Source of the DNA: a virus
Taxonomy: Duplodnaviria > Caudoviricetes
DNA length: 64,000 nucleotides
Virus record (IMG/VR): IMGVR_UViG_3300030104_006170
Strand: one strand, 5' to 3'
The number at the start of each line of letters is the position of its first letter. Positions within the stretch are counted from its first letter, which is position 1. Positions 2,401 to 36,303 of the stretch are shown piece by piece. Position numbers and translations under genes: made by a program. Below the pieces are notes generated by a model, which made no database searches, was not told where the DNA came from, and saw only the letters and a list, made by a program, of their open reading frames with translations.

Positions 2401-3050
2401 ATTAGTTCTTCATATTTTTCAGATACTTTATCCCAATTAACTATTTTCCAAAAGTTATTTATATATTTTTTTCTATCAGACATATAATTTAAATAATAAG
2501 CATGTTCCCACACATCTAAACCTAATAAAGGTTCTCCCATATTATCCATCAAAGGATTGTCTTGGTTGGGTGTACTTACTATTTTAAGTCTACCGTTCTT
2601 TAATACTAACCAACACCAACCTGAACCAAATACCTTCGCAGCTTCTTCATCAAACTGCCTTTTAAAGTTATCTAAACTACCAAAGTCTTTATTTATCTTT
2701 TTCTTAAGTTCATCGGAAAGTTCTGTTTTATCTGGTGTTATATAGTCTCTAAAAAATAAACTGTGATTATAGTAACCTCCAGCATTATTTCTCGTAAATG
2801 TATCATAGTTCTTAATTCCTCTAATAATCTTTTCAATGTCTTTGGAAGGATTTTTTCTTTTTGATAGTGCTTCATTTAGTTTGGTGGTGTAACCTTTATA
2901 GTGTTTGTTGTAATGTTCCCACATAGTTTCATAACCCACAAAATCTTTTACAGAGTTATAATCATAAGGTAAACTCACTCTTCTAAAGAACGTTTTTTTA
3001 GCTTCAGTTAAGAAACTTTCTCTTAATATGTTTTTAATTAAATCTTTCAA
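2397..3050 (-). CDS. sodA: Fe/Mn superoxide dismutase (Mn-type signature) with ~18-aa N-terminal extension
   Basis: LPYDY, HYNKHY, NAGGYYNHSLFF, FGSGWCWL, TPNQDNP, DVWEHAYY. Confidence 0.93.
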   Translation of the reverse strand: MKDLIKNILRESFLTEAKKTFFRRVSLPYDYNSVKDFVGYETMWEHYNKHYKGYTTKLNEALSKRKNPSKDIEKIIRGIKNYDTFTRNNAGGYYNHSLFFRDYITPDKTELSDELKKKINKDFGSLDNFKRQFDEEAAKVFGSGWCWLVLKNGRLKIVSTPNQDNPLMDNMGEPLLGLDVWEHAYYLNYMSDRKKYINNFWKIVNWDKVSEKYEELI

Positions 3051-6647: not shown

Positions 6648-6688
6648 TTGTGTTTATTTAATAAATATTAGGAAACTGTAGAATGTTA

Positions 6689-10689: not shown

Positions 10690-11013
10690 TTATTTTTCTT
10701 TATTAATAAATATACTGATTTCTGGCTTTTCCAGGAATTTCTCTATTATTTTGAAGTCACCAGCTCTTACTCTAATGTCTGGTCTAAAATATTTAGTCTC
10801 CTCATACTCCTCACCTTTAATCTTACATAATAATTTTATAAACTTTTGTTGTGTTTTTTTATCTTTATCACGTAATCTTTTAAATTGTTCACTATACCCA
10901 CCACCTTGTATTGCTGGTATTACAACTTCTATGAGTAAACATATCTCAGACCAAGTAAAATCAGTTTTGTCCCATCTAATATCTCCCTCTTCCCACGTAA
11001 TACAATCACTCAT
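10690..11013 (-). CDS. hypothetical protein
   Basis: Abutting ORF in operon; W-rich N-terminus. Confidence 0.55.
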   Translation of the reverse strand: MSDCITWEEGDIRWDKTDFTWSEICLLIEVVIPAIQGGGYSEQFKRLRDKDKKTQQKFIKLLCKIKGEEYEETKYFRPDIRVRAGDFKIIEKFLEKPEISIFINKEK

Positions 11014-11194
11014 CTTTTTTATCTTTTTTAAACCAGTAGTCTATTACATTCTGAAAAGAACTTAAAAACCCACCTATAATAATAAACAAAAGGTCACGGG
11101 TTGTCCCCATGACCTCTTGAGTAAACACAAAATAAATTAGAGCAGCGAATAAAGCTAAAAATATTATTGTTATTATAGTTCTAGCTAAATCCAT
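11006..11194 (-). CDS. small two-TM membrane protein (holin-like)
   Basis: Two hydrophobic helices and a charged C-terminus KKDKKDE. Confidence 0.55.
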   Translation of the reverse strand: MDLARTIITIIFLALFAALIYFVFTQEVMGTTRDLLFIIIGGFLSSFQNVIDYWFKKDKKDE

Positions 11195-11200
11195 TTTAAT

Positions 11201-11359
11201 TTACATTTTACATCTTGTACTGCATTTATATGCCATGTAAGCTACAATTAGAGCTGCTGGAATAGCCACCATCCAATCACTTTTAGCAAATTCCCAACCA
11301 GCAAAACCCGCTAGTAAGTAAGTACCATAACATTTTAAACATTTTAATCCTTTTTCCAT
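11201..11359 (-). CDS. 52-aa membrane peptide with Cys pairs at both ends
   Basis: Hand-translated MEKGLKCLKCYGTYLLAGFAGWEFAKSDWMVAIPAALIVAYMAYKCSTRCKM; fills the gap in the operon. Confidence 0.5.
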   Translation of the reverse strand: MEKGLKCLKCYGTYLLAGFAGWEFAKSDWMVAIPAALIVAYMAYKCSTRCKM

Positions 11360-11363
11360 AATT

Positions 11364-13769
11364 TTAAAAATTAGTTTTTAACGAAATTATCACATTTCTA
11401 CCAGGAGCTGAAATACCTGAAGCGAATGTTCTGTAATGTTGGTCTAATATATTTTCTAGACCAAGCTGTAGTTTAAGGTTTTCATTAAATTCATACTGTA
11501 AAGACATATTTAATGTCCACCATGATGGGAACCCCTCTATGGTCCCTAAATCATCATTGTCTACCCCACTAGAATTCATATCCTCAATATCTTTACCTAA
11601 AGTGTATATACCCCAAATTTTATATTCTATTTTATCTTTTTTAAATCTTAATAAAGATTTATTAAAAGCTGGAGGAATATGACCTAAAGGTTCTTCATTA
11701 GACACATCCCAACCTTTCTGCCATGTAAATGACTCCTCAAAAAATAACCATGGAGTTATTTTTGATTTCAAACCTAGAGACCAACCATATATATAAGCTT
11801 CAGGTGAATTCATTAGAGTCTGAACATTAACTTCTTCATACTCATAGAATTCGGTATACCCTAAATCTTTTTTAACAATAACATCTTGTAAATGAGTGTA
11901 ATAAAAGTTACTAGTTACTTGTAGGTTTTCCCATTTTTTAGTAATACTCATCTCTCCATTATACGCATACTCTGGAGTTAAGTCTGGGTTAGGTATTACC
12001 ATATCACCCCTTTTTACAAATACTTTTCCGTAATCATCTATGTTAGGTGCTCTAAATCCTGAAGATGCGACCCAATCAAATTTCCAGGTGTTTGTGGGTT
12101 TATATATTAGGTTAACATTACCTGTGAGTGCTCCATTATTAAATTTAATATGGTCCGTAACAAATACTGGGTCTGTTTCATTAAATAACATTTCTCCAAA
12201 TACTTGGGAGTATCTTGCACCTACATTCCATACAAAGTATTCGTTAACTTCTTTTTTATAAGAACCGTATAAAGCAGCTGTAGATAATCTACTTCCACCT
12301 GATGGGTACCTTGTTTGTGTACCTTCAGTTGCTGTTGAAAGGATATTATTATTTGTTAGTTCTAAACCATAAACTAACTTACCTAATGTGAAATCCCAAT
12401 TCAAACTTGTTACGTGAGCATCTATATATGTATTATTGTATTCCTCTGATTGGAATTTTCTAGTAATTCTATCTTCCTCTATAAATTGATATGCTACTGT
12501 TAGATTACTTCCGTCAAAAAATTTACTATCCTTATATGAGTTAATATCTAATGATGACATTAATCTTGTTTGTGGTCCGTATGACCATTCACTCCATTTT
12601 AATTCTCCATTTGTATAGTCTTGTAAGTTATCGTATCTTGGAATATTAGATGTTGTTGAAAATTGGTTGTTAAGTCTAATAAAAATATTTTCGTTTGCTC
12701 TCCATGAGGTGTTATTTAATATATCTACTTGTTTATAACCGGTACCTACTTGAATGTTTGGGTCTTCATTAACTACCATTTCATCGTTGTCCACATAGTG
12801 TGTTATTAAACCCCAATCATTGTATCCATGTTGTCTCCATTTACCCATCCTTAAATCTCCAAATTGTTTAACGGTAACAGATAAAAAATTAGCAACTTTA
12901 TCCCAACCTATATTATTACTAACATGAAAAGAGTATTCATCTGCCGCAGTCCCAAATCTAACTTCAGCATTTGTCTTATAAAAAGTTTTATCGTTTTTAC
13001 TAAACTCTGGTTTTTTAGTGTAAAAATGTACAACCCCTCCTAAAGCATCACTACCATATATTGTTGATGATGGTCCAAAAACTACTTCTACTATTTCTAA
13101 AGCATTTGGGTCAACAGTTATACTATTTTGTACGTGACCTGAACGATATATTGCATTGTTCATTCTAACACCATCAACTACTAGTAAAACTCTATTTGCT
13201 TCAAACCCTCTTATTATGGGTGAACCCCCACCTAGTTGAGATTTTTGAATAGTAACTCCTTGGGTTACTGTCAATAGGTCAGCTGTAGTAGATGCATTTG
13301 TATTTTTAATTTGTTTAATATCCACTGATTGGATTTGGTAGGCTACATTCTCTCTTTTTTCTCTAAATTTACTAGCTGATATAACTACATCATCTAAATA
13401 TTGTGTGTTTTGGTGTAGTAATATTACATAATCTTTTTGAGCCATTTCATTTTTAGTTATTCTTCTTGTTTCATAACCAATGAATGAAATTTCTAACAAT
13501 ATGTTATCTGGAAATTGTGATAAGTCTGCTTGACCCTTTATGTCAGTAGTTGTTCCTTTTCTAATAGAATCTTTATATGTAACATTACTACCTTCACTAA
13601 TCAATAATTGTTTTGTTACTATATTCGCAAATGGTATTGGTTCTAATGTTTGTTGGTCTTTTAAGGTTAACGTTTGTGCTAAACCTTTACCTGAACCCAA
13701 TATTAGTAAAAAGAGGATTAATAAGTAACCCCCAAATAATTTTAATTGTATTTTTGTCATTTCACTCAT
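11364..13769 (-). CDS. TonB-dependent outer-membrane receptor (Bacteroidetes type, haem/haemoglobin-receptor-like)
   Basis: Signal peptide, carboxypeptidase-regulatory-like N-domain (EPIPFANI), plug motif RGFEANRVLLVVDGVRMNNA, IEVVFGPSSTIYGSDALGGVV, terminal GLENILDQHY...GRN...F. Confidence 0.92.
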   Translation of the reverse strand: MSEMTKIQLKLFGGYLLILFLLILGSGKGLAQTLTLKDQQTLEPIPFANIVTKQLLISEGSNVTYKDSIRKGTTTDIKGQADLSQFPDNILLEISFIGYETRRITKNEMAQKDYVILLHQNTQYLDDVVISASKFREKRENVAYQIQSVDIKQIKNTNASTTADLLTVTQGVTIQKSQLGGGSPIIRGFEANRVLLVVDGVRMNNAIYRSGHVQNSITVDPNALEIVEVVFGPSSTIYGSDALGGVVHFYTKKPEFSKNDKTFYKTNAEVRFGTAADEYSFHVSNNIGWDKVANFLSVTVKQFGDLRMGKWRQHGYNDWGLITHYVDNDEMVVNEDPNIQVGTGYKQVDILNNTSWRANENIFIRLNNQFSTTSNIPRYDNLQDYTNGELKWSEWSYGPQTRLMSSLDINSYKDSKFFDGSNLTVAYQFIEEDRITRKFQSEEYNNTYIDAHVTSLNWDFTLGKLVYGLELTNNNILSTATEGTQTRYPSGGSRLSTAALYGSYKKEVNEYFVWNVGARYSQVFGEMLFNETDPVFVTDHIKFNNGALTGNVNLIYKPTNTWKFDWVASSGFRAPNIDDYGKVFVKRGDMVIPNPDLTPEYAYNGEMSITKKWENLQVTSNFYYTHLQDVIVKKDLGYTEFYEYEEVNVQTLMNSPEAYIYGWSLGLKSKITPWLFFEESFTWQKGWDVSNEEPLGHIPPAFNKSLLRFKKDKIEYKIWGIYTLGKDIEDMNSSGVDNDDLGTIEGFPSWWTLNMSLQYEFNENLKLQLGLENILDQHYRTFASGISAPGRNVIISLKTNF

Positions 13770-13793
13770 TTATAAGTGTATTTGTGATTTAAG

Positions 13794-14285
13794 TTATTTA
13801 CCCATGTTAAATCCTACCATAATAGATATTCTAGCTCCTGAATCTTCGTCTTCACCCCAAACACTACCATTTGGGACAAATGCTAAATTTACAGGAAAGT
13901 TTAAGTCTCCTGATTTGAAGTTTTTACCTATTGTAAATACCATATTGATTCCTGTCGCGGATAGATTTGGTCCTACAGCGTATTCCATTCCTTCCCCAGT
14001 TCTCACACCAACTAAAGATGATATAGATGGTAGAAACATTTGTCTTTCCATTCCTCCCACAACTACAACCCACTCTACTAATCCCGCAATATCTCCGTTG
14101 TCAGCAAATCTACTTTCCCATTGCCAACCATACTGTGTAATCATACTAGTTTCTAATTCATCAGCCATGAATCCTGGCGTTAAAAAGGTAAGTCCAACTC
14201 TAGGTCCCGCTAATCTATCTATTTGTTGGGAGTGGCTTACTAAAGAGCATAAAATTAATAATGTTATTAATAGTATATTTTTCAT
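13794..14285 (-). CDS. exported protein, probable small beta-barrel outer-membrane protein
   Basis: Signal peptide MKNILLITLL..SHSQ; alternating beta strands; C-terminal ISIMVGFNMGK. Confidence 0.6.
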   Translation of the reverse strand: MKNILLITLLILCSLVSHSQQIDRLAGPRVGLTFLTPGFMADELETSMITQYGWQWESRFADNGDIAGLVEWVVVVGGMERQMFLPSISSLVGVRTGEGMEYAVGPNLSATGINMVFTIGKNFKSGDLNFPVNLAFVPNGSVWGEDEDSGARISIMVGFNMGK

Positions 14286-15620
14286 TTATCTTGTTTTAAA
14301 TATTTTTTTATTATTAATAATATACATACCTGTTGGTAAGTCAACAAAATCACATTTCCATTCTCTCCCTAACACATCAAATATTCTGTTATCTTTTTGT
14401 TCAATATAATTAAATTCACCTAAACCAACGGTAAAGTTTCCTGTTTCAAATTTAATTTCTTCTTCACTGGTAAATGTACCACCTTGTGTTACTATATTAC
14501 CTAAAGCATCTGTTACTATATAACTTCCATTCCCATAACTACAACACATACCATCACCATATGAGTCTTCTATCTTAAATGTTACACAAGTATTAGGTGG
14601 TATTGTACCCACTACTGGAGTTTGAGGTGTAGTTCCGTTTGATGATAGGTCATTGTAGGGACCACCATTCATATATGTAACACTACCATCACCTATAGAC
14701 CATGTTGTTTCAGACCCATATCTATCCGTTATTATAGTCACTGTTAACTCTGTATTTATATTAGTTAAAGGTGCAATTACCTCAATATCTTCTTCATCCC
14801 CATTAGGTCTTGTATCTAGTAATCCGTTTGGTAATGTTACTTTAGCTTTCCAAGTTCCTGGTGTTGTTATTAAGTAATTAATTGTAGTTAATGTATGTCC
14901 AAATGGTTGTAGACTTCCTTGCCATTGTTGGGTGTGAACTAAAGTTCCGTTTGGGTCTCTTAACTCTAATGTAGCTGATGTTAAATTAGCGTAAGCACTA
15001 GCATTATATATTTCAACTTCTGGTTCATTACCTGATGGACATATTTTCATACCATGATGTAATAATAGGGTAGCGTCGTCATTTTGCCATTGAAACGATT
15101 GGGAACAATTTACTACCTCATTCCAAAATACCCATTTCTCATTTCTTTGAATCTCTGGTGCTATACCAGTACCACAGTGTAAAAATAATGTAGGATAACC
15201 TGGAAAAGTATAGTTACTAGCTACTGAACTACCTTGACTGTTTGGACCAATTATTGGGTATGGTGTACCTATAACCCAATTGCCTTGTGAACCACCACCA
15301 CCATTTAATAAAGATACTGAAGAACCAGCATCTCCATCTATAAAGAATACCATAAATTCGTCCGTCCCATCAGGACCAAAGTCATGGTATAACTCTTCCA
15401 TCACCCCACCAGTATGCCAAGACCAACAAGGTCCACACCAATGAGCTGATATATCTACTAATGTTGCTTTATTTGTGTAATTAGATAAATCATAAGAAAC
15501 TCCATTCATATCTGAAGCAGTCCATGTTTGTGCATTACATTTATTAATCAAAAATATGGATAGTATTGTTATGAAGGATAAAGTACACAGTATTTTAAAA
15601 ATTTCGTTTTCGTATTTCAT
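14286..15620 (-). CDS. secreted thioredoxin-like (WCGPC) protein with T9SS type-A C-terminal sorting domain
   Basis: Signal peptide; SAHWCGPCW; YGDGMCCSYGNG module; C-terminus RIFDVLGRE...LPTGMYIINNKKIFK. Confidence 0.8.
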   Translation of the reverse strand: MKYENEIFKILCTLSFITILSIFLINKCNAQTWTASDMNGVSYDLSNYTNKATLVDISAHWCGPCWSWHTGGVMEELYHDFGPDGTDEFMVFFIDGDAGSSVSLLNGGGGSQGNWVIGTPYPIIGPNSQGSSVASNYTFPGYPTLFLHCGTGIAPEIQRNEKWVFWNEVVNCSQSFQWQNDDATLLLHHGMKICPSGNEPEVEIYNASAYANLTSATLELRDPNGTLVHTQQWQGSLQPFGHTLTTINYLITTPGTWKAKVTLPNGLLDTRPNGDEEDIEVIAPLTNINTELTVTIITDRYGSETTWSIGDGSVTYMNGGPYNDLSSNGTTPQTPVVGTIPPNTCVTFKIEDSYGDGMCCSYGNGSYIVTDALGNIVTQGGTFTSEEEIKFETGNFTVGLGEFNYIEQKDNRIFDVLGREWKCDFVDLPTGMYIINNKKIFKTR

Positions 15621-15629
15621 AGTTTTATA

Positions 15630-15719
15630 TTATTTAGTTAACTCATATAAAAACATAGCTAATAAAAGGGGTACACCTGTTAATAATAATGTTGTTATAA
15701 TTGTTTTGATTATTCTCAT
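15630..15719 (-). CDS. 29-aa single-TM micropeptide
   Basis: Hand-translated MRIIKTIITTLLLTGVPLLLAMFLYELTK; ATGA overlap with the upstream stop. Confidence 0.5.
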   Translation of the reverse strand: MRIIKTIITTLLLTGVPLLLAMFLYELTK

Positions 15720-17056
15720 AATTTATATTTAATCCCTATGGTAGTTCTATAATCTTGGACTCCGTAATAGTTAGATATTTGTCCGGAAAGAGCTACAGAA
15801 AACTTTTTACCTAATTTAAGTCCTGCTTCAATCCCTCCATCATATTCAAATACATCTTCGGTTGGTGCCCAATCAGCTTCCATACCAAATGCTTTTATTT
15901 CTACATCATTACCTGACGTAATAAATTCAACTGCAGGTACTTGTATGTCTCTTGGGTATGGATAAAAGTTGGCCCATACATTAATAAAATATAATTCTGA
16001 TTCAGAGAATAAGTCAACACCTAATACTGGTGAACCTGTCCATGCCCAAATTCTTTTCTTAGCATTATAGGTATTGGTGATGTATGGTTCATTTAATACT
16101 GGGTCTAATATCTCTGTATATGTCCCCACTAGTTCATCATTTTCCCATTCATTATTTCCATTAAAATCATAAAATACATTTTGTGCGGATGATTCCGTAT
16201 CCCAGTATGATTTTTCATAGAATGAAATAAATTCGTCTGTATAAGCTGCCCATGGTGTCCCTCTCACATTATAACCAAAAGTAAAGTTAACATTTTGATT
16301 TACTCTATATAAAATTCTGACTCCTCCTCTCACATACTCTTGATTGGAACCGTAGTCTTCTACCAGTGCATTAATCCTTCTTCTGTGGTCCCCTTCTATC
16401 CAAAAACCATATCTGGTAAAAATTTTAGTATATCTTGCATATTGTCTTTCTTCTCTATATTCTCTACCATCTACTCTGATAAAATCCCAGGTAATTCTGT
16501 ATTGCATTCCTTGCATATTAAAAGCGTGGGATTCTTTTTCTTCATCTTTCTTTAAATCTTCTTCCTTTCTTCCAAAAATATTTTCTGGACAAGTTAAACA
16601 ACTCTCACTAGCTTTTTTTCTTATACCAAATGAATATGAATAGTCATCTTGTATATCAAGGTCCGCAAAATCTTTAGGTCTAGCTATAAAACCACCAAAT
16701 GATAATTCTATACCTTCAAAAAGATTTTTCTTACCCCAATCTATTAAATCTTTTTGTGTTATCTTTTTTAAATCTATATTATCCCATTTTACCTCTTTTT
16801 TAAGTTCACTTAAAGTTGGCATTCGTAATTGTGTTTGTAGTCTTAATGTATCTGTTTTTTTACGGTCTTTTTGACATCTTGTATATTCTTTATAACATGT
16901 AAAAAAGTTTGATAATTCCTCTGAGTTTACATAGTCCCCAATATATCTATACTTTGTTTTATCCCATTCTGGTAATCTAGGTTCTTCACAATCCTGACTA
17001 AAACTTGGGAATGTAAGTAAGGGTAATAATGTTAATATTAATAATAATTTTTTCAT
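15716..17056 (-). CDS. exported protein, probable beta-barrel outer-membrane protein
   Basis: Signal peptide; aromatic-rich alternating strands; C-terminal YRTTIGIKYKL. Confidence 0.65.
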   Translation of the reverse strand: MKKLLLILTLLPLLTFPSFSQDCEEPRLPEWDKTKYRYIGDYVNSEELSNFFTCYKEYTRCQKDRKKTDTLRLQTQLRMPTLSELKKEVKWDNIDLKKITQKDLIDWGKKNLFEGIELSFGGFIARPKDFADLDIQDDYSYSFGIRKKASESCLTCPENIFGRKEEDLKKDEEKESHAFNMQGMQYRITWDFIRVDGREYREERQYARYTKIFTRYGFWIEGDHRRRINALVEDYGSNQEYVRGGVRILYRVNQNVNFTFGYNVRGTPWAAYTDEFISFYEKSYWDTESSAQNVFYDFNGNNEWENDELVGTYTEILDPVLNEPYITNTYNAKKRIWAWTGSPVLGVDLFSESELYFINVWANFYPYPRDIQVPAVEFITSGNDVEIKAFGMEADWAPTEDVFEYDGGIEAGLKLGKKFSVALSGQISNYYGVQDYRTTIGIKYKL

Positions 17057-17060
17057 AAAT

Positions 17061-17444
17061 TTACTTAGTTATATCGTGACCACCTAATGCTTTAATTTGT
17101 AATTCTATCTTTTTAAACTCCACATCAATTTCTTTAGTTATCCCAAATACTTTATCCTCTAATGTATTAATTGTCTTAATTTTTTTATTAAGTCTTTCTT
17201 CTACTACTTGAATTTCGGCTTCTAATTTTTCTTCTAGTGTTACAAATTTTTCTAAAACCATTTTAGTTTCTCCCTCAAAATCTTCATCAAATGATTTTTG
17301 TTTTTCTTCAAATATATATATTTGATTTTTCATTGTTTGAAACTCACCATATATAATACCTAATGTGAATACAAACCCTATTAGTGTTAACCACATTTGT
17401 GGGTCAATCTTTTGTAAAAATCCTTCTTTTTCTTTTCCTGCCAT
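17061..17444 (-). CDS. membrane-anchored coiled-coil protein
   Basis: One TM (MWLTLIGFVFTLGIIYG) followed by heptad-rich region. Confidence 0.55.
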   Translation of the reverse strand: MAGKEKEGFLQKIDPQMWLTLIGFVFTLGIIYGEFQTMKNQIYIFEEKQKSFDEDFEGETKMVLEKFVTLEEKLEAEIQVVEERLNKKIKTINTLEDKVFGITKEIDVEFKKIELQIKALGGHDITK

Positions 17445-17450
17445 AGTATT

Positions 17451-18047
17451 TTATCTTTCTAGTGTTAATTCCCTGTATTGGTAGTGTTCTCCTGTTAATT
17501 CTATCTCATTATCATATCTTCTCACATTTTCTAACACCCATTTATTAGTTGTCTTATAAGTTGTTATCCATTCTTCATTTTCTAAACCTAAAAAATAATT
17601 TGCTGGAACGTATAAATATTCAAATGGTGTCACATTACATAAAGGTTTTTCTGCTCTCCAGTTCCACCCTAGTGTTGATGAATCTTGGAGTTGTGAGTTG
17701 TGATTGTCACCCCATCTCATAGTTGATGGGTAACCCTCAGCTCTGGTACCATATATTAAATCAAAATTAGCTATAGAATCAAAAGATACAGTCCCCACAT
17801 CAAAAGTAGAATCATTTACGTATTCCACCCATGCGGATACGTCTAATCTAAACCCCTCTTCTAACATATAGAATTTAGTTATGTTCCATTGACCACTAAT
17901 TTCAGTTGGGTCTACAGCTGTGGGTAGTTGAAATGGTTCTATGGGTTCTTTTTCACAAGAAGCCATTATCAAAATCCAAAATAGTAACATAAAACCAAGA
18001 TAAATCTTAGTTAGGTTACCTCTAACAAATGAATTTACCTTTTTCAT
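17451..18047 (-). CDS. lipoprotein (lipocalin-like)
   Basis: Lipobox IMAS-C followed by EKEP; ISGQWNIT lipocalin-like motif. Confidence 0.65.
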   Translation of the reverse strand: MKKVNSFVRGNLTKIYLGFMLLFWILIMASCEKEPIEPFQLPTAVDPTEISGQWNITKFYMLEEGFRLDVSAWVEYVNDSTFDVGTVSFDSIANFDLIYGTRAEGYPSTMRWGDNHNSQLQDSSTLGWNWRAEKPLCNVTPFEYLYVPANYFLGLENEEWITTYKTTNKWVLENVRRYDNEIELTGEHYQYRELTLER

Positions 18048-21000
18048 TGTTTAATAACTTTGTGATTAATTATAATACCTTTAAAAGTAATTCTTAAATC
18101 ATATATCCCTTGAGAGAAATTACTCATGTCTATTTCTTGAGCATTTTCTTTATGAATAATATGATTCCCAAGCAAATCATAAACGTCAACATTTATTTCA
18201 TTTTTACTTTTAATATGTACTTTATCCCTTGTAGGGTTAGGGTAGACTAGTATTTGGTCTCTACCCACCATATCATCTAAACTAAGTGGTGTTCCAAATT
18301 CACAATAATCATATTGTGATTGACAGAAACCATCCCAAGTATTATTTAAACAATACGGGTCTACTTCATAAACTACCCAAGCGTAACAACTATCATTTAA
18401 CCAATATGGATTTCCTGCTCCAGTTACCGTAGTTAAGTCATAGTATAAACAACTACCATCATCTGTGTTTGCCAATGGGTCAAAATTGTCTACCATTACC
18501 GTACTAAATCCTGGTAAATAGTTAGGGTAGGTTGTATATAAATATCCTTGAAAGTCGTACTCATCTGTACACCCATAAACTGTGGCTATACAAGTACCGT
18601 TATCTACGTTAGCTACTGGGTCATAATTAAATGCTGTTGAGTCCGTACAACCAAACACTTGTGATATACAAGGGTCAGATACATCTGTTGCTGATACTTG
18701 GTTTGTATTTGCTGTTGCATCATAATTAAGTGCTGGTAACCCATCTCCATTAAAGTCATTTCCTTGACCATCATCCATACATCCATATATGAATGGTACA
18801 CATGAGTTAGCTGGTTGAGTGTTGGCTAGTGGGTTGTAGTTAAACATTGTAGTATCCATACATCCATATATAAAAGGAATACACGAATTGTTATCCACAT
18901 TAGCTAAAGGGTCATAATTAAACATTGTAGGGTCCATACATCCAAATACTTTTGTTATACACGAACCATCTTCTGTATTAGCTAATGGATTATAATTAAG
19001 AGCTGGTAGTCCATCTCCATCATAATCTATGACTATACCGTCATCCATACACCCATATACAACTGCTATACAACTACCATCATCGAGGTTAGCTAATGGG
19101 TCATAATTAAACGATATTGGATTCATACATCCGTATACTGCTAAGTCTATACAACTCCCATCATCATAATCTGCCGTAAATCCTTGAGTCCAGAATTGTA
19201 GGTATAGTGGGTCTGTACAACCTGGATTGTAATAACACGAACCATCTAAGGTATTTGCTAAGGGATTGTAGTTTGAAGCTGTGACATCAGTACAACCATA
19301 AATAAAAGGTATACAAGTACCGTTATCAGTGTTTGCTGCTGGATTATAGTTCCACATAGTTGTGTCCATACATCCATAAACAAAAGGAATACAACTACCG
19401 TCAGCTAAATTAGCCAATGAATTATAATTAAATTGTGTTGGGTCCATACATCCGTATATAACTGAGTCTACACATGAACCATTATCGTAATCAGCTGTAA
19501 ACCCTTGTGTCCAGAATTGGATGAAGTTAGGGTCCGTACATCCAGGTGCGTAGTAACATGAACCATCTTCAGTGTTTGCTAATGGATTGTAGTTCGATGC
19601 TGCATTGTCTGTACAACCATATACAAATGGTTCACAAGTACCATTATCAGTATTAGCTGTAGCATCATAATTAAACATTGTAGTATCCATACAACCGTAA
19701 ATGTAAGGTACACAACTATTATCCGAAAGATTAGCTAATGGATTATAATTAAATTGACTAGGGTCCATACACCCATAAACAACGGAATCTAAACAAGACC
19801 CATCGTCATAATCGGCGGTAAACCCTTGATTCCAAAACTGAATAAAATTAGGGTCTGTACAACCTGGTGCGTAATAACAGGAGTTATCACTAGTATTAGC
19901 TGTAGGGTCATAGTTAGAAGCGTTTACATCTGTACATCCATATATAAATGGGGTACAAGTACCATTATCTACATTAGCTAAAGGATTGTAATTAAACATG
20001 GTTGAGTCCATACAACCATATAATATAGGTATACAAGAACCGTCATCAGTGTTAGCATTTGCATCGTAATTAAGTGCTGTAGGGTCGGTACAACCAAGAA
20101 TGGTAGATATACAGTTTGATGGTGTATATTCTGCATTAGCAAGTGGGTCATAATTAAATGCAGTTACATCCATACAGCCATATATGAACGGTATACAAGA
20201 ACCATTATCTATATTAGCTAAAGAATCGTAATTAAACATGGTTGGGTCGGTACAACCGTATACTACAGAATCAAGACAACTTCCATCATCATAATCTGCA
20301 ACAAATCCTTGAGTGTAGAACTGTATAAAATTATTGTCCGTACATCCTGGATTATAATAACAACTATTATCGTTAGTATTTGCTAACGCGTTAAAATTGG
20401 CAGCTAAATTATCTGTACAACCGTATATAAATGGAATACATGTTCCATTATCTGTATTTGCTAAAGAGTTATAGTTCCACATAGTTGAGTCCGTACACCC
20501 GTTAATTACTGGTATACAACTATTATCGTTAGTGTTTACATCAATATAAGGATTCCCTGTAAGTGGTATAAAATTAAATGCTGTAGGGTCTGTACATCCA
20601 AGAATTGTAGGAATACAAGGGTTAGCTGAATCTGTAGCAGAAGTCCAGTTTACAGTTGCATAACTATTATAGTTAAATGCTGTTGAGTCTGTACATCCAA
20701 ATTCTGCTAGTGTTAAACAACTTCCATCATCAAAGTCAGCTACAAATCCTTGAGTATGGTATTCTAAATACGCAGGACTTGTACAACCTGGATTATAATA
20801 ACAACTCCCATCATCAGTATTAACGGTAGGGTTGTAATTAAATGCTGTACTATCCATACATCCTAGTATAACAGGAATACAATTATTACCACAATCTTGT
20901 AGTGTGGTGTAGTTAAAAGGATAGGGTATAATCGCGTCCGTCCAAGGGTTACTTCCAACTGAGAATGTGGTAGTACCCACAGGATTTATTAACTGAACAC

Positions 21001-22855
21001 CACATTGATTAGCCGTTGTAAAGGAATTACCTTGGGTAAAGAAATATATTTTTGCTGGTTCAATTGTACCAAGAGTTATATTAATATCTAGTTGTGAACC
21101 ATTTTGTATTGTATAAGGTCCATATACCGAATCATTTTGGACTATCCCTATATAAGAACCAAACCACCCATCTCCAGCTCCATCAGTTAATCTTACTGTA
21201 TAGTTACATGCAGGATTTATTAGTTGTTGATTAGCAAGAGGGTCGTAGTTAAACGCATTTGAATCTAGACATCCAAGTATAACAGGTGTTAGACATGACC
21301 CATCATCTATAACAGCAAGTGGGTTGTATTCGACGAATCCAGGGTCTGTACATCCTGTTGGTGGTCCTGATGTACCACATGGAGTTATATTACCTAAAAA
21401 TGCATTTTCTTCAAATCCAAAATTAGTATTAGGTGGACCTAAATAAAATAGAGTATCACCACAAGATGGGTTTATAATTAGAACTTCACCATCTATACCA
21501 CCATAACATGAACCACACATTCCATCACCGAACGAATCGAATAAATTAAATTGTAGTGCTACTGTAGTATCCACACAAATAGGTGTAGCTACTGGAACAC
21601 CTGTAGTAGTATATTGTGGACTAGTTGCTATAACATTATCAGTTAATGTATCAACTAATTCCCATGAAGTTTCTTCAGAGTAAGTATCCGGAGTAAGTAG
21701 AACTAAAAGTTCAGTTTGACCAGGTGGACATGTTGTTGTAACATTCCCACATATTCCATTATCTATATTTGCAAATGGATTAAATCCAGGTGCAGTTGGG
21801 TCAGTACAACCTACAATACAAGGGTCTGGTGTAACCCATAGTGTATCACTATAAGTACCATCTTGGAATTTAACAAAGAAAAAGTGTGGTATATCTTCTG
21901 TTACAAAATTACCCCCTGCTTTTACATCAAATGTATTTACGTTATTATTAAGGTAAGTTACTTCCCAAATAGTATATGGAAATGTTGTAGGTGGTGTAGA
22001 ACCGATAGGGACACCTCCTTGAAAAAATTGACTTTGTACAAATGGAGAAGCAGTTAAATCATAACCGTAATGTATTTGGCTAACATCACAGTTAGGACCA
22101 AATCCTGTAGTTAACCACTGAAATGATAATTCTGTTTGATTACCGTTACATGATTGTGTTACTGAAGACGTATCAAATCCAGAACAACTTGGGTATATAC
22201 AGTTATCTAGAGGATGAGTTGCTGTTGAATCAAAGTTGAGAGCGTTTGGGTCCATACATCCCCACGCAAATATACAATCTGTATCACCTTCTTCAGTTCC
22301 CCAAGATGGGACTGTAGCTAATGAATCATAGTTTAATGCTTCATCATCCATACAACCTGGTATAAAGGTAGTAGGTGGAGCACAAGGTGCGATAGTTAAA
22401 GTATCGATAAATGATGCGGCTGTATTTGGTCCTCCAAATATAATTCCTGGTGTTGTCCAACCGTTAGCTAATGCAAGTGAATCCCCACCAAATGAAGGGT
22501 CATTAGGATTTTCATAACCTTCATTTTGTACAAATGCTAAAGTATCCTGACATTCGTTAGTGATAAGAAAATAACCAGAAGGATAAAATCCATCACCATA
22601 TTCATCAAATAATTCTATTCTGTATTGGCCTGAGTATAACGGTATAAACAATTCTACTAATTCACCGTCATCGTAATCACCCATCCACCTATCAGCATAT
22701 ATCGTATCATCTTCATTGACGGGTAAGTGCCATAATATCCATTCTGTTTCTTCTGGCCAGTTATCTAGTTGAACGTCTAGTTTAATCCAACTATCAGTTT
22801 GAGCAAAAGAACTAAAAGTTAGTAAGCTAAATAGAAACAATAAAAAATTTCGCAT
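18044..22855 (-). CDS. 1603-aa secreted adhesin-like repeat protein with T9SS type-A CTD
   Basis: Signal peptide; about 33 GC(T/M)D..A.NY...AN.DDGSC repeats; C-terminus VYPNPTRD...VYDLLGN...SQGIYDLRI...KVIKQ. Confidence 0.88.
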   Translation of the reverse strand: MRNFLLFLFSLLTFSSFAQTDSWIKLDVQLDNWPEETEWILWHLPVNEDDTIYADRWMGDYDDGELVELFIPLYSGQYRIELFDEYGDGFYPSGYFLITNECQDTLAFVQNEGYENPNDPSFGGDSLALANGWTTPGIIFGGPNTAASFIDTLTIAPCAPPTTFIPGCMDDEALNYDSLATVPSWGTEEGDTDCIFAWGCMDPNALNFDSTATHPLDNCIYPSCSGFDTSSVTQSCNGNQTELSFQWLTTGFGPNCDVSQIHYGYDLTASPFVQSQFFQGGVPIGSTPPTTFPYTIWEVTYLNNNVNTFDVKAGGNFVTEDIPHFFFVKFQDGTYSDTLWVTPDPCIVGCTDPTAPGFNPFANIDNGICGNVTTTCPPGQTELLVLLTPDTYSEETSWELVDTLTDNVIATSPQYTTTGVPVATPICVDTTVALQFNLFDSFGDGMCGSCYGGIDGEVLIINPSCGDTLFYLGPPNTNFGFEENAFLGNITPCGTSGPPTGCTDPGFVEYNPLAVIDDGSCLTPVILGCLDSNAFNYDPLANQQLINPACNYTVRLTDGAGDGWFGSYIGIVQNDSVYGPYTIQNGSQLDINITLGTIEPAKIYFFTQGNSFTTANQCGVQLINPVGTTTFSVGSNPWTDAIIPYPFNYTTLQDCGNNCIPVILGCMDSTAFNYNPTVNTDDGSCYYNPGCTSPAYLEYHTQGFVADFDDGSCLTLAEFGCTDSTAFNYNSYATVNWTSATDSANPCIPTILGCTDPTAFNFIPLTGNPYIDVNTNDNSCIPVINGCTDSTMWNYNSLANTDNGTCIPFIYGCTDNLAANFNALANTNDNSCYYNPGCTDNNFIQFYTQGFVADYDDGSCLDSVVYGCTDPTMFNYDSLANIDNGSCIPFIYGCMDVTAFNYDPLANAEYTPSNCISTILGCTDPTALNYDANANTDDGSCIPILYGCMDSTMFNYNPLANVDNGTCTPFIYGCTDVNASNYDPTANTSDNSCYYAPGCTDPNFIQFWNQGFTADYDDGSCLDSVVYGCMDPSQFNYNPLANLSDNSCVPYIYGCMDTTMFNYDATANTDNGTCEPFVYGCTDNAASNYNPLANTEDGSCYYAPGCTDPNFIQFWTQGFTADYDNGSCVDSVIYGCMDPTQFNYNSLANLADGSCIPFVYGCMDTTMWNYNPAANTDNGTCIPFIYGCTDVTASNYNPLANTLDGSCYYNPGCTDPLYLQFWTQGFTADYDDGSCIDLAVYGCMNPISFNYDPLANLDDGSCIAVVYGCMDDGIVIDYDGDGLPALNYNPLANTEDGSCITKVFGCMDPTMFNYDPLANVDNNSCIPFIYGCMDTTMFNYNPLANTQPANSCVPFIYGCMDDGQGNDFNGDGLPALNYDATANTNQVSATDVSDPCISQVFGCTDSTAFNYDPVANVDNGTCIATVYGCTDEYDFQGYLYTTYPNYLPGFSTVMVDNFDPLANTDDGSCLYYDLTTVTGAGNPYWLNDSCYAWVVYEVDPYCLNNTWDGFCQSQYDYCEFGTPLSLDDMVGRDQILVYPNPTRDKVHIKSKNEINVDVYDLLGNHIIHKENAQEIDMSNFSQGIYDLRITFKGIIINHKVIKQ
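18440..21360 (-). repeat. array of ~30 Cys-bracketed ~26-aa coding repeats with 4-unit super-periodicity
   Basis: Counted from the translation (3 more copies lie further N-terminal); boundaries approximate. Confidence 0.85.
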
Positions 22856-22897
22856 AAATATCTTTTAAAATAAATATCCTTTAATTAGAAATGATAC

Positions 22898-23980: not shown

Positions 23981-25648
23981 CTATTCACAAGCTGTTATTT
24001 CTGTTATCTGACAAGTTGCTGCTTTAACATGGAAACATGAACCACTTCTTAAACCACATTTATTTGAGTAGTAAATGGTGCCCTCACCACCTTCACATGC
24101 ACAAGACTCGTTATCATAAATATGATTACCTGTTGATGGAACATCACCTGATGCTGCATCCGTATAATATTCCGAACAGGCCAGTGTACACGCTCTCTCA
24201 CAACCGAAAGTACCAGCTGCTGCTAAAGAAATCGGGTTACATGCAGTTCCTCCTGTACCACATGTGGGTGCATCAATAGAGTCACCCATAAATAAAAGTG
24301 TTTCATCATCTTGTGATGCATTTAAGTCTGTAAACCCAAAACACTCTGTGTTTGCTGAAAAGAAATCACCTTCAATAGCAGTTGTAAATCTTGTTGTATA
24401 AACAGTATAGGTGGATGAACCTGTAAATGTTTGTGTCCCATGTAAACAACCGTTTGAGTCATAACGTGATATACTTCCAGGAGATTTAGCTATGAATGCT
24501 ATATAATTTGATGTTGCGTCTGGCATTACTGTAAATTTTTGCATTGCTCCATATGCAACATGGGGTGACATCTCTGAACCATCACCGTCCGCTTGTTGTT
24601 CACAAGCAAATAATTGCATAGGGTCAGCTGTACCCCCATCATTAGGGTCTGAAAAGGTTTTTACTCCTGGACCTAAAAACCTATGTCCTCCTTTAGCTGT
24701 GGTAGTAATGTCTGTATCAATTCTTACTGACACTGCTGCTGGGGTGGTGTTTACCTCGGTTGTTAATACACCGTTAGAATTTCCTATTAGAATTTTTCTT
24801 TGAGTTGTAGTCCCAGCTCTATTTGCTGTAGCGTTATTAGTCATTAAAATATGTCCGTTGGTTGAGTACCATCCGAATTTAGGTTCGGAAGTCATAGGGT
24901 ATAAAGGCATACTGTCTAAAGAAGCTCTCATTCTATAAACACATATTGGTTTAGTGGCGTATATAAAATAATTTCTAGTTTGACTTAAATTACAGGTAAC
25001 CGCACTATATTGTGTTACACTATTAAAAGTTTGTTCAACAGTTAAACTTGTTACCTCAGAATTACCGACTGTAGTGTAAGCTACTTGTATTGAGTTGGAG
25101 GCTTCTAGAGATATTATTAGTAATCCCATTAGTGCGTTTCTATCGACTCTTGTCGCGAAAGTATATCCTGCAAATCCAGCGTATGCACCAGTTAATGCTG
25201 GATAGGTAGTATTATTTAACATAAAAGGTTTATTACCTTCAATTCTATCACCCACCGCTAAACTAGCAGTAGTAGAAGACATCGCAGTACTTATGGTTGC
25301 TAAAGATGAACCATTTTTATAAATGGTTGTAGAATTTTTAAAAGCTCTCACTTTATAAGTTCCAGCAACACTAATAAAAAACATATTGGAGAAATCTCCT
25401 AAAGCTGCACCGTTTTTCATATATTTGTAATACCCAGTAGTATTACCCACAGCGTTAGTTCCTAAGATTTCAAAGTTATTTAAACTTAAATCATCACCAC
25501 CACCCGTAATTGTAGAACTGGGAATAGCAGCTTCCATACCAGTTAAATCTGCCATAGTAGCTAGACTAATATTTGTATCTAATGCACTAGTTCCTGAAAT
25601 AAAAGTCTGGAGGTTATCGTGTACCCCTTTTATTGTAGTAGAACCCAT
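23981..25648 (-). CDS. virion structural/tail-associated protein
   Basis: T/S/G/A-rich beta protein directly downstream of the giant fibre gene; Cys-rich C-terminus. Confidence 0.55.
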   Translation of the reverse strand: MGSTTIKGVHDNLQTFISGTSALDTNISLATMADLTGMEAAIPSSTITGGGDDLSLNNFEILGTNAVGNTTGYYKYMKNGAALGDFSNMFFISVAGTYKVRAFKNSTTIYKNGSSLATISTAMSSTTASLAVGDRIEGNKPFMLNNTTYPALTGAYAGFAGYTFATRVDRNALMGLLIISLEASNSIQVAYTTVGNSEVTSLTVEQTFNSVTQYSAVTCNLSQTRNYFIYATKPICVYRMRASLDSMPLYPMTSEPKFGWYSTNGHILMTNNATANRAGTTTQRKILIGNSNGVLTTEVNTTPAAVSVRIDTDITTTAKGGHRFLGPGVKTFSDPNDGGTADPMQLFACEQQADGDGSEMSPHVAYGAMQKFTVMPDATSNYIAFIAKSPGSISRYDSNGCLHGTQTFTGSSTYTVYTTRFTTAIEGDFFSANTECFGFTDLNASQDDETLLFMGDSIDAPTCGTGGTACNPISLAAAGTFGCERACTLACSEYYTDAASGDVPSTGNHIYDNESCACEGGEGTIYYSNKCGLRSGSCFHVKAATCQITEITACE

Positions 25649-25650
25649 AC

Positions 25651-28600
25651 TTACTTATTCTTTAATTCTTCGATTTCGGCTTTTAGTTCTTTAATTGATT
25701 CAATCAATAGTGGAACTATTTTTTCATACCTCACACCTTTATACCCATTTTCTCTTGTGGTTACTATCTCAGGTAAAACTTTTTCTATTTCTTGTGCTAT
25801 AACCCCAATATCATGTCCTTCATTACCATGTTGTGTTTTCTTTTCTTCTTTAGTTAATTTTTTCCAATCAAATTCTACCCCACTTATTTGAGACACTTTA
25901 TCCAGAGCATTTTCTATTGGTTGGATATTTTCTTTCCATCTTTTATCTGACGATGAATATGCTACCACATCATTACTAGCATCAATTCTACCGTCCGTCC
26001 CGTTTGGATTAACTCCTACCCCTAATGCTCCTGAATTAATTCTAATGTCACCAGTTACATCCAATGAATAACTTGCAGAAGCCATATTAACACCAACTTG
26101 GTTGTTCTCTCCGTCAATCTGTAATGCTGGTGTTCCATCTGCTGCGGCACTAGTATCAGAATAGAATCTATGTCTAATATCCGAGATATAATCTAAATCA
26201 CCAACAGAAATACCAAAACCATAATCACCATTATATAAATCTATGTGTGAAATACTCGGTCCACCTGAACTATCATAATAATTACCAAAATGAAGTTGTG
26301 GTGTAGGTGCTGCAGCTGTGGTTCCACCTTCTAAATTTAGTACTCCTTTTACATCTAAACTATCCTGGTCTTCATCCCATAACATGTACTTGCCTGATGT
26401 AGCTCCAAAGAATTTAACATCATAACCAGTATCATCTACACCAACAGTGAAAGTACCATCTAGTTGTACATTACCATCTATATCTACAGCGTCTAAATTT
26501 GATGTTCCATCAACATCTAAATCTCCTGTAATGTTGGTTTTTCCTGAAACTCCTAGTACACCGGTTACATCAACGTTTGTTGTTGTACCTGATGGTTTTA
26601 TTCCGGTTCCACTTCCATTACCTTGCCAATATGTAGCAACTGACGAGAAGTCTGTAAGTCCGGTTAATTGTGCTTTTGTTATTGATTCTACAACACCAGA
26701 AGTTTGTTTTACCAAAATTCTTTCTGCACTAGTCGGAGTGGGGGTTGTAGTTGCAACACTATCTAAGTCTAAAGTACCCCCTATCGTAGTATTACCCATA
26801 GCAGATAAGGTACCGTTTATATTTGTATCTCCAGATACACCCAAATCATTAGTTAATATTGTATTACCAGAAATTTGTATTTCACCGGTACTCATTTGTA
26901 AATCCTTACCATGAATAATACCACCTATATTCATTTGGTAGTCTCCTGTCGCGGATGGAACGTCTTGTCCAGGACCTATTACAATATTAAAGTCTCCTGA
27001 TGTAATAGCATCACCAGCTTGTGACCCTATACCAATATTATCGTTACCACTAGTAAGATTACCTAAAGCGTTACTACCTACACCTAAATTTCTATCACCA
27101 CTAGTTAGTGTACCTACCCCAGCACTAGAACCACCACCAACTGAATAATTACCCATTCCAACATTATCACCTCCAGTGTTAGAACCTGAATTGTTACCAG
27201 CACCAGTACCTATACCAAAGAAAAGATTTCCTGTACCATTAACATTATAACCAGCAAGATAACCTACTACAACATTGAATTGTCCTGATGTCGCAACACT
27301 ATTCCCCAACGCTGATTTTCCTATAGCGGTATTTCCATTTTGGGTTGTTGTGTATCTTAATGCACTCTCTCCTATACCTGTATTCCATTCACCAGTCGTA
27401 ATAGAATACAAAGATTTGTAACCTATTGCTGTATTCCCGTCAACGTCTTGACCACCTTGTTGACTATATAAAGCTTGGTAACCTATCGCGGTGTTGTATT
27501 GATGTTGTGTTGTGTTTTGTCCTGGGTTCCCTGCTTGATATCCTATGTAGGTGTTTGCACTTGTACTTGCTGTTTCAAATACTATTAGGTTTTCTATTTT
27601 AAAATCACCGTTTCCAGTTACTTTACCATTAAATAGAGTTTCTCCAGAAACGCCTAGTTGGCCTATAACGTCCACATTAGTTGTTGTACCTGATGGTTTA
27701 ATTCCTGTGCCCGTCCCATTACCTACCCAATAATCAGATGTAAATCCTGTTAAAGCAGCTGTGGTTATTGATTCTATTTCTCCGTTGGATTGGACTACCA
27801 ATATTTTATCACTAGCAGTAGCGGTTGCTGTATCTACCGTACCTAGGAATGTTCTTCCGGTTACACTTAAATCACCACCAAATCTTGCATCTGTTCTACC
27901 GGAAGTTACACCACTAACATTTACATCCCTATTAAATGTTGCACTTCCTGCTTCAGACATATCAAGTAATAAGGCATCTATTGTACTTGCAGCGTCTTGA
28001 CCTCTAAATATAATATCTTTGTTGTTAGCCTCTGCCTTGATAATGAAGTGTGAAGCGTCTCTTTTAAATCTACCGAAGTCGGTACCGTCATCACTTAGTA
28101 TAATATCAGCACCATTAGCATCTAGTGTTATGTCCCCTTCAACATCAAGAGTGAAGTTACCAGAAGAAATATCTAGTTCAGCTGAAGTTAAGGTTGCGTT
28201 GCCAACGATAAAACCAGCACTACCTGCTTGTATCGAACCATCCACGGTTAATAATGAACTACTAACAGTGTCAGTTCCTATCGCTATTTTATCATTTCCT
28301 GCATCTAAAAAGAATAGATTTTGGTCGGTATTCCCTTCCATTCTAACATCTATGTCTACTCCTGTTTCATTAAAAGTTATTTCATTGTTAGTATCTTCGG
28401 TAAAGTCTAACATATTAACGTTACCGACTGTGATATTTATGTCGTCATCAGTAAATGTTATTTTAGTATCATCATCACCATCATGTTCTATTCTATCTAA
28501 TTTAATAGTAGATATGTTTGTTATATCAGTATTATCATCACCAATTATATTTCCATTTGCAGTTATATCACCACCTATTGTTATATTGGTTGTAGCTCCT

Positions 28601-36183: not shown

Positions 36184-36303
36184 AATTTAAATTTCTTCTA
36201 TACATAAATATCTATTAGTTGTATATTTATTAATAAAGTAAAAAGCTTGAATATTCACTTTATCTTTTAAAAAAAGGATTATATAATTAATAAAAACAAA
36301 ACA

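Follow-up and report, generated by a model that had tools for sequence, protein, structure and literature searches.

Why should a virus of bacteria keep a run of genes whose products belong in the envelope of its host? The question is raised by a 64,000-nt stretch of caudoviricete DNA (IMG/VR record IMGVR_UViG_3300030104_006170; hereafter the window), in which a single, tightly packed string on the minus strand (positions 11006–22878) encodes a giant secreted repeat protein with a type IX secretion system (T9SS) sorting signal, a lipoprotein, a membrane-anchored coiled-coil protein, an outer membrane (OM) beta-barrel, a thioredoxin-fold protein, a TonB-dependent receptor (TBDR) and smaller proteins. 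An earlier note on this DNA had read positions 11201–22855 as a cassette of exported proteins through which the phage, using the T9SS of its host, remodels the surface of the infected cell. We consider it probable that the block is an envelope module which marine jumbo phages of one clade, with Flavobacteriales-like Bacteroidota as their hosts, have kept for a long time, and that it refits the surface of the infected cell.

The cassette is genuine and belongs to the virus, it is old and has been kept under selection, and its link to the T9SS is solid only for the repeat protein of 1,603 amino acids (aa; hereafter the adhesin). Because each product has a Sec signal with Gln at position +1, a lipobox or transmembrane (TM) helices, the products must use the Sec, Lol and BAM machineries of the host, to which the T9SS is added in the case of the adhesin; they would be meant for the infected cell and not for the virion. 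Gln at +1, the Q-rule of Bacteroidota, is found in 13 out of 13 predicted signal-peptidase-I substrates (adhesin, barrel, thioredoxin-fold protein, a 163-aa protein and TBDR) of the window and of two related phage contigs, L001 and L003. These export signatures of the host phylum, kept over a long divergence, argue that the proteins are targeted to a living Bacteroidota envelope.

Viral context, conservation and transcription

Among the genes of the window are those of tail fibres, nucleases, a DNA ligase, a prohead protease and an endolysin-like protein. The block has phage genes to either side, its position being between tail-fibre genes, and the nearest relatives of the prohead protease are those of the huge phages LR745206, LR756502 and LR756504 and of the Lak phages of Prevotella, so that the contig can be taken as viral, a point on which the earlier note had asked for confirmation. 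No cellular genome was found to carry the window. The coverage break that the note had associated with a chimeric host fragment was not seen: contig depth is 10.7–13.9 within the block and likewise in the flanks (run X1, in which 90 per cent of the sampled words were present, with contigs showing no or almost no mismatch), and GC content is even across the block, without a break at its borders.

The string is also conserved in related phages, as the note had proposed to check. L001, an IMG/VR contig of 297.6 kb that CheckV rates as 93 per cent complete, has every gene of the string, arranged in the same order, with amino-acid identities of 42–90 per cent. In L003 and L004, Tara Oceans contigs whose TBDRs are 62 per cent identical to that of the window, the core of the string (the repeat protein with its C-terminal sorting domain [CTD], the lipoprotein, the TM/coiled-coil protein, the barrel, the TBDR and the small membrane proteins) is syntenic between the same flanking phage genes. 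Synonymous sites are saturated, and pN/pS ratios range from 0.1 to 0.75 for all genes (0.1–0.5 without the gene of a 52-aa protein); by these ratios, all cassette genes are under purifying selection. Conservation is highest in the TM/coiled-coil protein and in a 62-aa protein and lowest in the surface-exposed repeat protein. A megablast search of 50,697 phage records with the cassette and with 23 kb of the window returned no match; marine metagenomes from at least 12 studies contain near-identical DNA.

Within the string, intergenic gaps measure 0–24 nt, with a 95-nt gap between the genes of the 446-aa barrel and the thioredoxin-fold protein as the sole exception. The string is not followed by a break: conserved phage genes (107 aa and 154 aa) come next, and then an 814-aa protein whose conservation is confined to the N-terminus, in the manner of tail fibres.

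The TATTTAT motif that the earlier note had seen ahead of the first gene does lie there, 15–21 nt upstream of the adhesin gene, within a promoter-like element, GATATTTAT, at 22870–22878 (minus strand). Across the window TATTTAT is as frequent as expected by chance (48 copies, with 52 expected), but its copies are not placed at random: 15 of the 48 lie no more than 40 nt upstream of a gene start (69 in all), and no other 7-mer is as common in these upstream stretches. The GATATTTAT 9-mer also precedes the adhesin gene in the diverged L001 and L003, despite the saturation of synonymous sites. The motif heads the gene of a 3,510-aa fibre protein and other structural-looking genes. We regard (A)TATTTAT as a candidate phage promoter element. 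The core is probably transcribed as one unit from the GATATTTAT element, which heads tail-fibre genes too, and the sharing of this motif hints indirectly that the cassette may be co-expressed late. Scans for sigma-70 promoters and for terminators gave results at chance level, and neither the cassette nor the TBDR gene turned up in any RNA run.

As further observations on this motif and its neighbours, (A)TATTTAT stands 5–30 nt upstream at 15 of the 69 gene starts, those of tail-fibre genes included (examples are 22870–22876, 36204–36210, 10706–10712, 55166–55172, 6661–6667 and 4319–4325). The 3,510-aa protein (25651–36183, minus strand) ends in a Peptidase_S74 intramolecular chaperone and is thus a giant tail fibre or spike. 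Downstream of its gene lies that of a 555-aa protein (23981–25648), the last ~75 aa of which are shared with L003 proteins.

The adhesin, the TonB-dependent receptor and the other core proteins

The adhesin (18044–22855, minus strand) was described in the earlier note as a 1,603-aa repeat protein with a T9SS type A CTD, and both CTD models bear this out: PF18962 (Por_Secre_tail) scores 44.1–49.3 bits against a cut-off of 27 (E 6.3e-13), and TIGR04183 scores 40.1 bits against a cut-off of 23. On these scores, the adhesin can be counted by its sequence as genuine T9SS type A cargo. Its hydrophobic leader, a signal peptide as judged by eye, ends in SFA|Q and is kept in L001 and L003, with whose homologues the adhesin shares 42–46 per cent identity and the same two ends. 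Between the leader and the CTD are three N-terminal domains of the DxxGDG type and approximately 32 two-Cys repeats of ~26 aa. Cysteines total 85, more than the roughly 66 of the earlier count. With two Cys and several Asp or Asn in every 26 residues, the repeat looks like that of a disulfide-stabilised, possibly Ca-binding rod. A repeat of this type also occurs in cellular T9SS cargo (loci L016 and L037); the N-terminal 452 aa had no match in a Pfam scan, and a search of PDB sequences with the repeats returned nothing meaningful.

The abundance of Bacteroidetes-type O-glycosylation sequons that the note had pointed out is real in number, D-(S/T)-(A/I/L/V/M/T) occurring 24 times in the adhesin versus 8.3 ± 2.7 times in shuffles of the same composition, but the sequons are located in the repeat consensus, so that the excess belongs to the repeat and does not represent 24 independent events. 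A part of the adhesin in adhesion, aggregation or receptor masking is plausible. In metagenome contigs, many skip and go-back joints fall within the adhesin repeats (18400–22300; skips of ~1.0, 1.44 and 3.2 kb); these may be variants in repeat number or a product of assembly or repeat collapse, and we do not use them as evidence.

The 801-aa TBDR (11364–13769, minus strand), a TonB receptor in the earlier note as well, has all of its domains above the Pfam cut-offs: in addition to a CarboxypepD_reg domain, it contains a Plug (PF07715, 80.3 bits with a cut-off of 23.9) and a barrel of the 22-strand type (PF00593, 92.8 bits with a cut-off of 27). It has a signal peptide, a terminal Phe and, at residues 126–132 ahead of the plug, the TonB-box-like sequence DDVVISA. 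Together with its phage relatives, the TBDR makes up a clade of over 60 clusters (60–98 per cent identity), all from marine metagenomes and on contigs of up to 280 kb. Neither the plug nor the TonB-box region varies within this clade (V128, V129, S131 and S133 are unchanged), which implies that TonB-coupled gating is under selection.

The best full-length NCBIfam model for the TBDR is TIGR01785 (haem/haemoglobin receptor), at 210.3 bits, and the closest solved structures are PhuR and ShuA. There was no SusC model among the 25 best NCBIfam matches (the worst with E 3e-7) and no SusD-like neighbour; by these comparisons the TBDR is not SusC-like. Its best match among 185,579 species genomes has 42 per cent identity, and the nearest cellular TBDR overall (48–49 per cent) lies on a housekeeping contig of a low-GC (27–30 per cent) metagenome-assembled genome of uncultured Flavobacteriales from Tara. 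At such distances, the gene is not a recent capture. In a FastTree phylogeny, the cellular group with 48 per cent identity nests within the phage clade, the nearest cellular protein grouping with that clade at full support; an odd amino-acid make-up was flagged for this group and false long-branch joins were present elsewhere in the tree, and the direction of transfer was not drawn from it. Searches of IMG/VR with exact peptide patterns for the TBDR found none, the L001 homologue having been reached through the thioredoxin-fold protein.

The 446-aa protein (15716–17056, minus strand) consists of a signal peptide, a helical N-terminal part and a barrel. In its AlphaFold2 model (pLDDT 58.6), residues ~107–446 match 12-stranded OM barrels with a Foldseek probability of 1.0 (FapF, an autotransporter, NanC and OmpG), and the VIA comparison gives Z 13–15 to NalP, EstA, AaaA, KdgM, NanC and FapF over residues 107–446. 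An OM beta-barrel of the 12-stranded type is therefore supported at the level of the modelled fold. Sequence homologues of the barrel were found in the phage clade only, and in ESM Atlas the structure clusters closest to it are viral without exception.

The gene of the 198-aa lipoprotein (17451–18047, minus strand) starts within the end of the adhesin gene, the start overlapping the adhesin stop by 4 nt. The assignment made in the earlier note stands, as L001 and L003 retain the lipobox; after its Cys comes EKEP, which includes acidic residues. Homologues were again found in the phage clade only, and the only leads from ESM Atlas are to lipocalin-like lipoproteins of Bacteroidota. The AlphaFold2 model (pLDDT 44) was unusable. 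A predicted complex of the lipoprotein with the TBDR allowed no verdict (score 0.00), the fold of the lipoprotein partner itself being poor (pLDDT 41–42).

The 127-aa protein (17061–17444, minus strand), with one N-terminal TM helix and a C-terminal coiled coil, is among the best conserved members of the string (83–90 per cent identity, pN/pS 0.11–0.20) and gave weak matches of the coiled-coil type only, in Pfam and PHROG. At the far end of the string are two small proteins that are kept in L001 and L003, a hydrophobic one of 52 aa (11201–11359, minus strand) and one of 62 aa (11006–11194, minus strand) with two TM helices and a charged C-terminus. The gene of the latter was outside the block as first delimited, yet it is a member of the conserved string: the 62-aa protein is 69–90 per cent identical to its L001 and L003 copies and weakly matches phrog_1544. 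Within its coding sequence, a GC-rich hairpin with a 14-bp stem is followed by a run of T (11087–11119, minus strand), which may be an internal attenuator or terminator, or may be due to chance.

When the lipoprotein, coiled-coil, barrel, 163-aa, 52-aa and 62-aa proteins were compared by tblastn with 81 cellular TBDR loci, there were no matches, and therefore no cellular operon resembling the cassette was seen in those loci.

The accessory genes and a short C-terminal tail

Two genes between the barrel and the TBDR are accessory members of the string, because they are absent from L003 and L004 and relocated in L002, a third phage contig (231 kb, 70 per cent complete) that has both at another site; no TBDR was present in the part of L002 examined. 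They encode a 444-aa exported protein with a WCGPC thioredoxin fold of the ResA/TlpA type (14286–15620, minus strand) and a 163-aa secreted protein (13794–14285, minus strand), and would be later add-ons in one sub-lineage.

The cellular family to which the WCGPC protein belongs is large, with 227 representative clusters at E < 1e-30; the protein shares 30–50 per cent identity with it over residues 10–400, and the WCGPC motif is invariant in the family. A family profile of the N-terminal domain matches ResA (E 1.9e-10); the single sequence stays below the Pfam cut-off (16.7 vs 23.5 bits). A DxYGDGxCC domain is common to this protein and the adhesin. The thioredoxin-like domain given to the protein in the earlier note is thus upheld, but of the type A CTD given to it only ~33 aa are present: neither TIGR04183 nor PF18962 matched at an E limit of 10 (with a tool that drops most matches above ~0.1), so that the TIGR04183 search proposed in the note succeeded for the adhesin and failed for the WCGPC protein. 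A full Por_Secre_tail was found in 31 of 32 sampled members of the family, the phage copy being the sole exception. In the alignment, the N-terminal half of the CTD, with YPNP, has gone from this copy, and the last ~33 aa remain. We speculate that the loss might keep the protein in the periplasm.

Could the WCGPC protein fold the adhesin, as the earlier note had suggested? The proposal is weakened by what is now known of both partners. The ResA/TlpA family is mainly known from reductive pathways. The two accessory genes are missing from phages of the L003/L004 type, in which the adhesin persists with 57 Cys, and the link between oxidoreductase and adhesin folding is therefore optional at best. 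The protein may still act on adhesin cysteines, as the product of an optional gene from a family of reductase type.

The 163-aa protein is encoded in L001 and L002 but not in L003. It has a signal peptide with Gln at +1, and the only leads to its fold come from language-model comparison in ESM Atlas (OMP_b-brl and DUF6646), which makes a small OM beta-barrel possible. Of the two probable beta-barrel OM proteins of the earlier note, then, the 446-aa protein holds as a barrel at fold level, but the 163-aa protein has only its signal peptide and a language-model lead.

The ~33-aa tail is not confined to the WCGPC protein. Two secreted proteins of this phage, unrelated in other respects, end in the same tail, IxDxLGRE...LPxGxYIxNxKxxxTR (52658–53449 and 14286–14390, minus strand), which aligns to the last strands of the type A CTD without the YPNP half; in L002, the genes with this tail (the WCGPC gene and the homologue of 52658–53449) adjoin each other. 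The tail may serve as a mini sorting signal peculiar to phages, or it may be what is left of a CTD in decay. Positions 52658–55160 (minus strand) form a second string of genes for secreted proteins, among them one with a type B CTD (53517–54047; CHU_C, E 3.8e-12) and one with a PKD-like domain (54049–54588). With the type B CTD here and the type A CTD of the adhesin, the phage therefore encodes both types of T9SS signal.

Competing explanations and comparison with known systems

In the explanation that we favour, that of an envelope module refitting the infected cell, the OM would be re-equipped by the phage during a long infection. The TBDR would add a working TonB-gated importer of a scarce nutrient, the nearest subfamily being of the iron/haem type, and the adhesin, disulfide-rich, probably glycosylated and perhaps binding Ca, would coat the cell and alter its adhesion or mask its receptors. 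Several observations weigh against this explanation. The TIGR01785 score of the TBDR is under the family cut-off (210.3 vs 316.85 bits). Haem receptors such as HemR, ShuA and HmuR have a conserved His between the FRAP and NPNL/NPDL boxes, and although the FRAP and NPDL boxes are present, neither the window protein nor the clade consensus has a His between them. No known family was found for the lipoprotein, the barrel or the TM/coiled-coil protein. The location of the module within the tail-fibre region could indicate host recognition or exclusion rather than metabolism. Finally, the closest cellular homologues of the TBDR, in marine Flavobacteriales, sit in a tight porZ-recO-TBDR string whose genes overlap or nearly touch; it was found with the two closest cellular homologues (49 and 44 per cent identity) and at 16 of the 123 cellular loci with enough upstream sequence (L177:7091-12346 and L178:6829-12415; examples among the 16 are L016, L021, L030, L034, L035 and L047). 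PorZ is a protein of the T9SS attachment complex, and the linkage hints at a T9SS-linked rather than a nutritional role for the TBDR.

The same linkage, together with the fact that the first gene of the cassette encodes a T9SS cargo, speaks for an alternative that we hold to be unlikely, though not negligibly so: a TBDR of T9SS-linked descent, the barrel, the lipoprotein and the TM/coiled-coil protein might export or anchor the giant CTD protein and import no nutrient at all. The phage would then bear a T9SS-coupled display apparatus (a TBDR-like protein from the porZ lineage, a barrel peculiar to phages, a lipoprotein and a coiled-coil protein of the inner membrane) that makes the cell sticky or masks its receptors. 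We give this version a similarly small chance; if it were true, a virus would be carrying accessory parts of a bacterial secretion system along with the cargo. There is a parallel in PorF (PG0534), a TBDR-like OM protein of ~91 kDa that is listed as a T9SS component, and in the TBDR CHU_1606, which co-purifies with PorV (PMC5445135, PMC8754138, PMC8564354). The parallel is incomplete, since PorF reportedly has no plug (PMC8564354), whereas the plug and TonB box of the phage TBDR are strongly conserved; in Porphyromonas gulae, moreover, the profile of the cellular family matches over its N-terminal 230 positions only (E 2e-17, with two near-equal matches). The porZ and porF homologues of F. johnsoniae are not neighbours (Fjoh_0707 vs Fjoh_0118; PMC5445135), and the presence of recO in the cellular string suggests an inherited gene order and not a shared function.

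Superinfection exclusion or protection of progeny, in which the coat and the new OM proteins would mask or replace receptors and thereby keep other phages, or released progeny, from adsorbing to infected cells and debris, seems to us a little less probable again. It would suit a module embedded among tail-fibre and host-recognition genes, and the surface-exposed adhesin does evolve fastest (42–46 per cent identity, compared with 83–90 per cent for membrane and periplasmic members). Flavobacterium phages often need T9SS or gliding surface proteins, and the Llp protein of phage T5 blocks FhuA, which counts in the same direction. Masking, however, does not need a complete and conserved TonB-gated transporter, host receptors already in the OM would persist, and no similarity to known exclusion proteins was found in Pfam, NCBIfam or PHROG. 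A lysis function is very unlikely. Here the lipoprotein and the TM/coiled-coil protein would be o-spanin and i-spanin and the 62-aa protein a holin, as might be suggested by the adjacency of the lipoprotein and type-II TM coiled-coil genes (6 nt apart), the class II holin-like layout of the 62-aa protein, the high conservation of this and the TM/coiled-coil protein, and an endolysin-like gene elsewhere (38051–38677). The gene order is nonetheless opposite to that of known spanin pairs, and the TBDR and an OM protein intervene between the putative spanin and holin genes. The mature lipoprotein (167 aa) is aromatic-rich rather than proline-rich, with acidic residues after its Cys, and PHROG contained no holin or spanin match.

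The 'cellular' look of the gene content (TBDR, OM proteins, T9SS cargo) might also point to an assembly chimera, a host island or a prophage flank. This reading is effectively refuted and we assign it almost no weight: independent assemblies place the same string between the same phage genes, depth is even across the borders, a TBDR of the phage type occurs in 0 of the 185,579 species genomes, the barrel and lipoprotein have homologues in the phage clade only, and the genes have diverged along with the phage.

How does the module relate to what has been described in other phages? There is one earlier description of phage-encoded T9SS cargo, in the 'Cryophage' of cryoconite, where it was termed unique (Bellas et al. 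2020, PMC7468147). As in the present case, the Cryophage products have T9SS type A sorting domains, presumably exploit the T9SS of the host and differ from one phage variant to another. They are, however, encoded by single enzyme or PA14 genes in metagenomic islands, whereas here a giant Cys-repeat protein heads a multi-gene string in marine jumbo phages. Putative TBDRs of the SusC type have been reported in the megaphages Mar_Mega_1 and LR745206 and read as auxiliary genes for nutrient uptake (Michniewski et al. 2021, PMC9723777). These phages, too, are very large, and LR745206 is among the sources of the nearest prohead proteases. The TBDR studied here differs from theirs, because tblastn gave no full-length match in the 50,697 phage records (best coverage 32 per cent); it is not SusC-like, has no SusD partner and is part of a conserved envelope cassette. 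A looser likeness exists to cyanophages with pstS, phoA and an OM protein-like barrel (PF24653), which are lytic marine phages supplying envelope or periplasmic uptake proteins. They belong to hosts of another phylum and involve other families; the link of PF24653 to the 446-aa barrel is one of language-model feature similarity only (0.91), with no match in Pfam. By sequence, the 444-aa protein is a clear member of the cellular T9SS proteins with a thioredoxin fold (Trx or AhpC-TSA, DxYGDGxCC and Por_Secre_tail), from which the phage copies differ in lacking the N-terminal half of the CTD with YPNP.

Phage T9SS cargo and megaphage TBDRs had thus already been reported; what is new here is a conserved multi-gene envelope module, which we did not find described in the literature. 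Auxiliary genes of marine phages are mostly regarded as encoding cytoplasmic enzymes, and here a widespread clade of jumbo phages keeps under selection an OM and secreted set that can work only through the Sec, BAM, Lol, TonB and T9SS machineries of the host. Flavobacteriales are key degraders of particles and algal blooms. If the module is expressed, infected Flavobacteriales would have a virus-specified surface and uptake capacity, which would matter for the cycling of nutrients (possibly of iron), for attachment to particles and for competition between phages. The cargo, with one full CTD and a conserved 33-aa mini-CTD, would offer a natural test of what a T9SS signal needs, and the cellular relatives of the TBDR draw attention to a family of porZ-linked TBDRs in the hosts that is unstudied.

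Two other genes of the window, both on the minus strand, may be mentioned. One (55439–56872) strongly matches phrog_850 (E 3e-151), which is annotated as 'RNA-binding protein', and the other (2397–3050) encodes an Fe/Mn superoxide dismutase (Sod_Fe_C, E 4.9e-42) with an N-terminal extension of ~25 aa.

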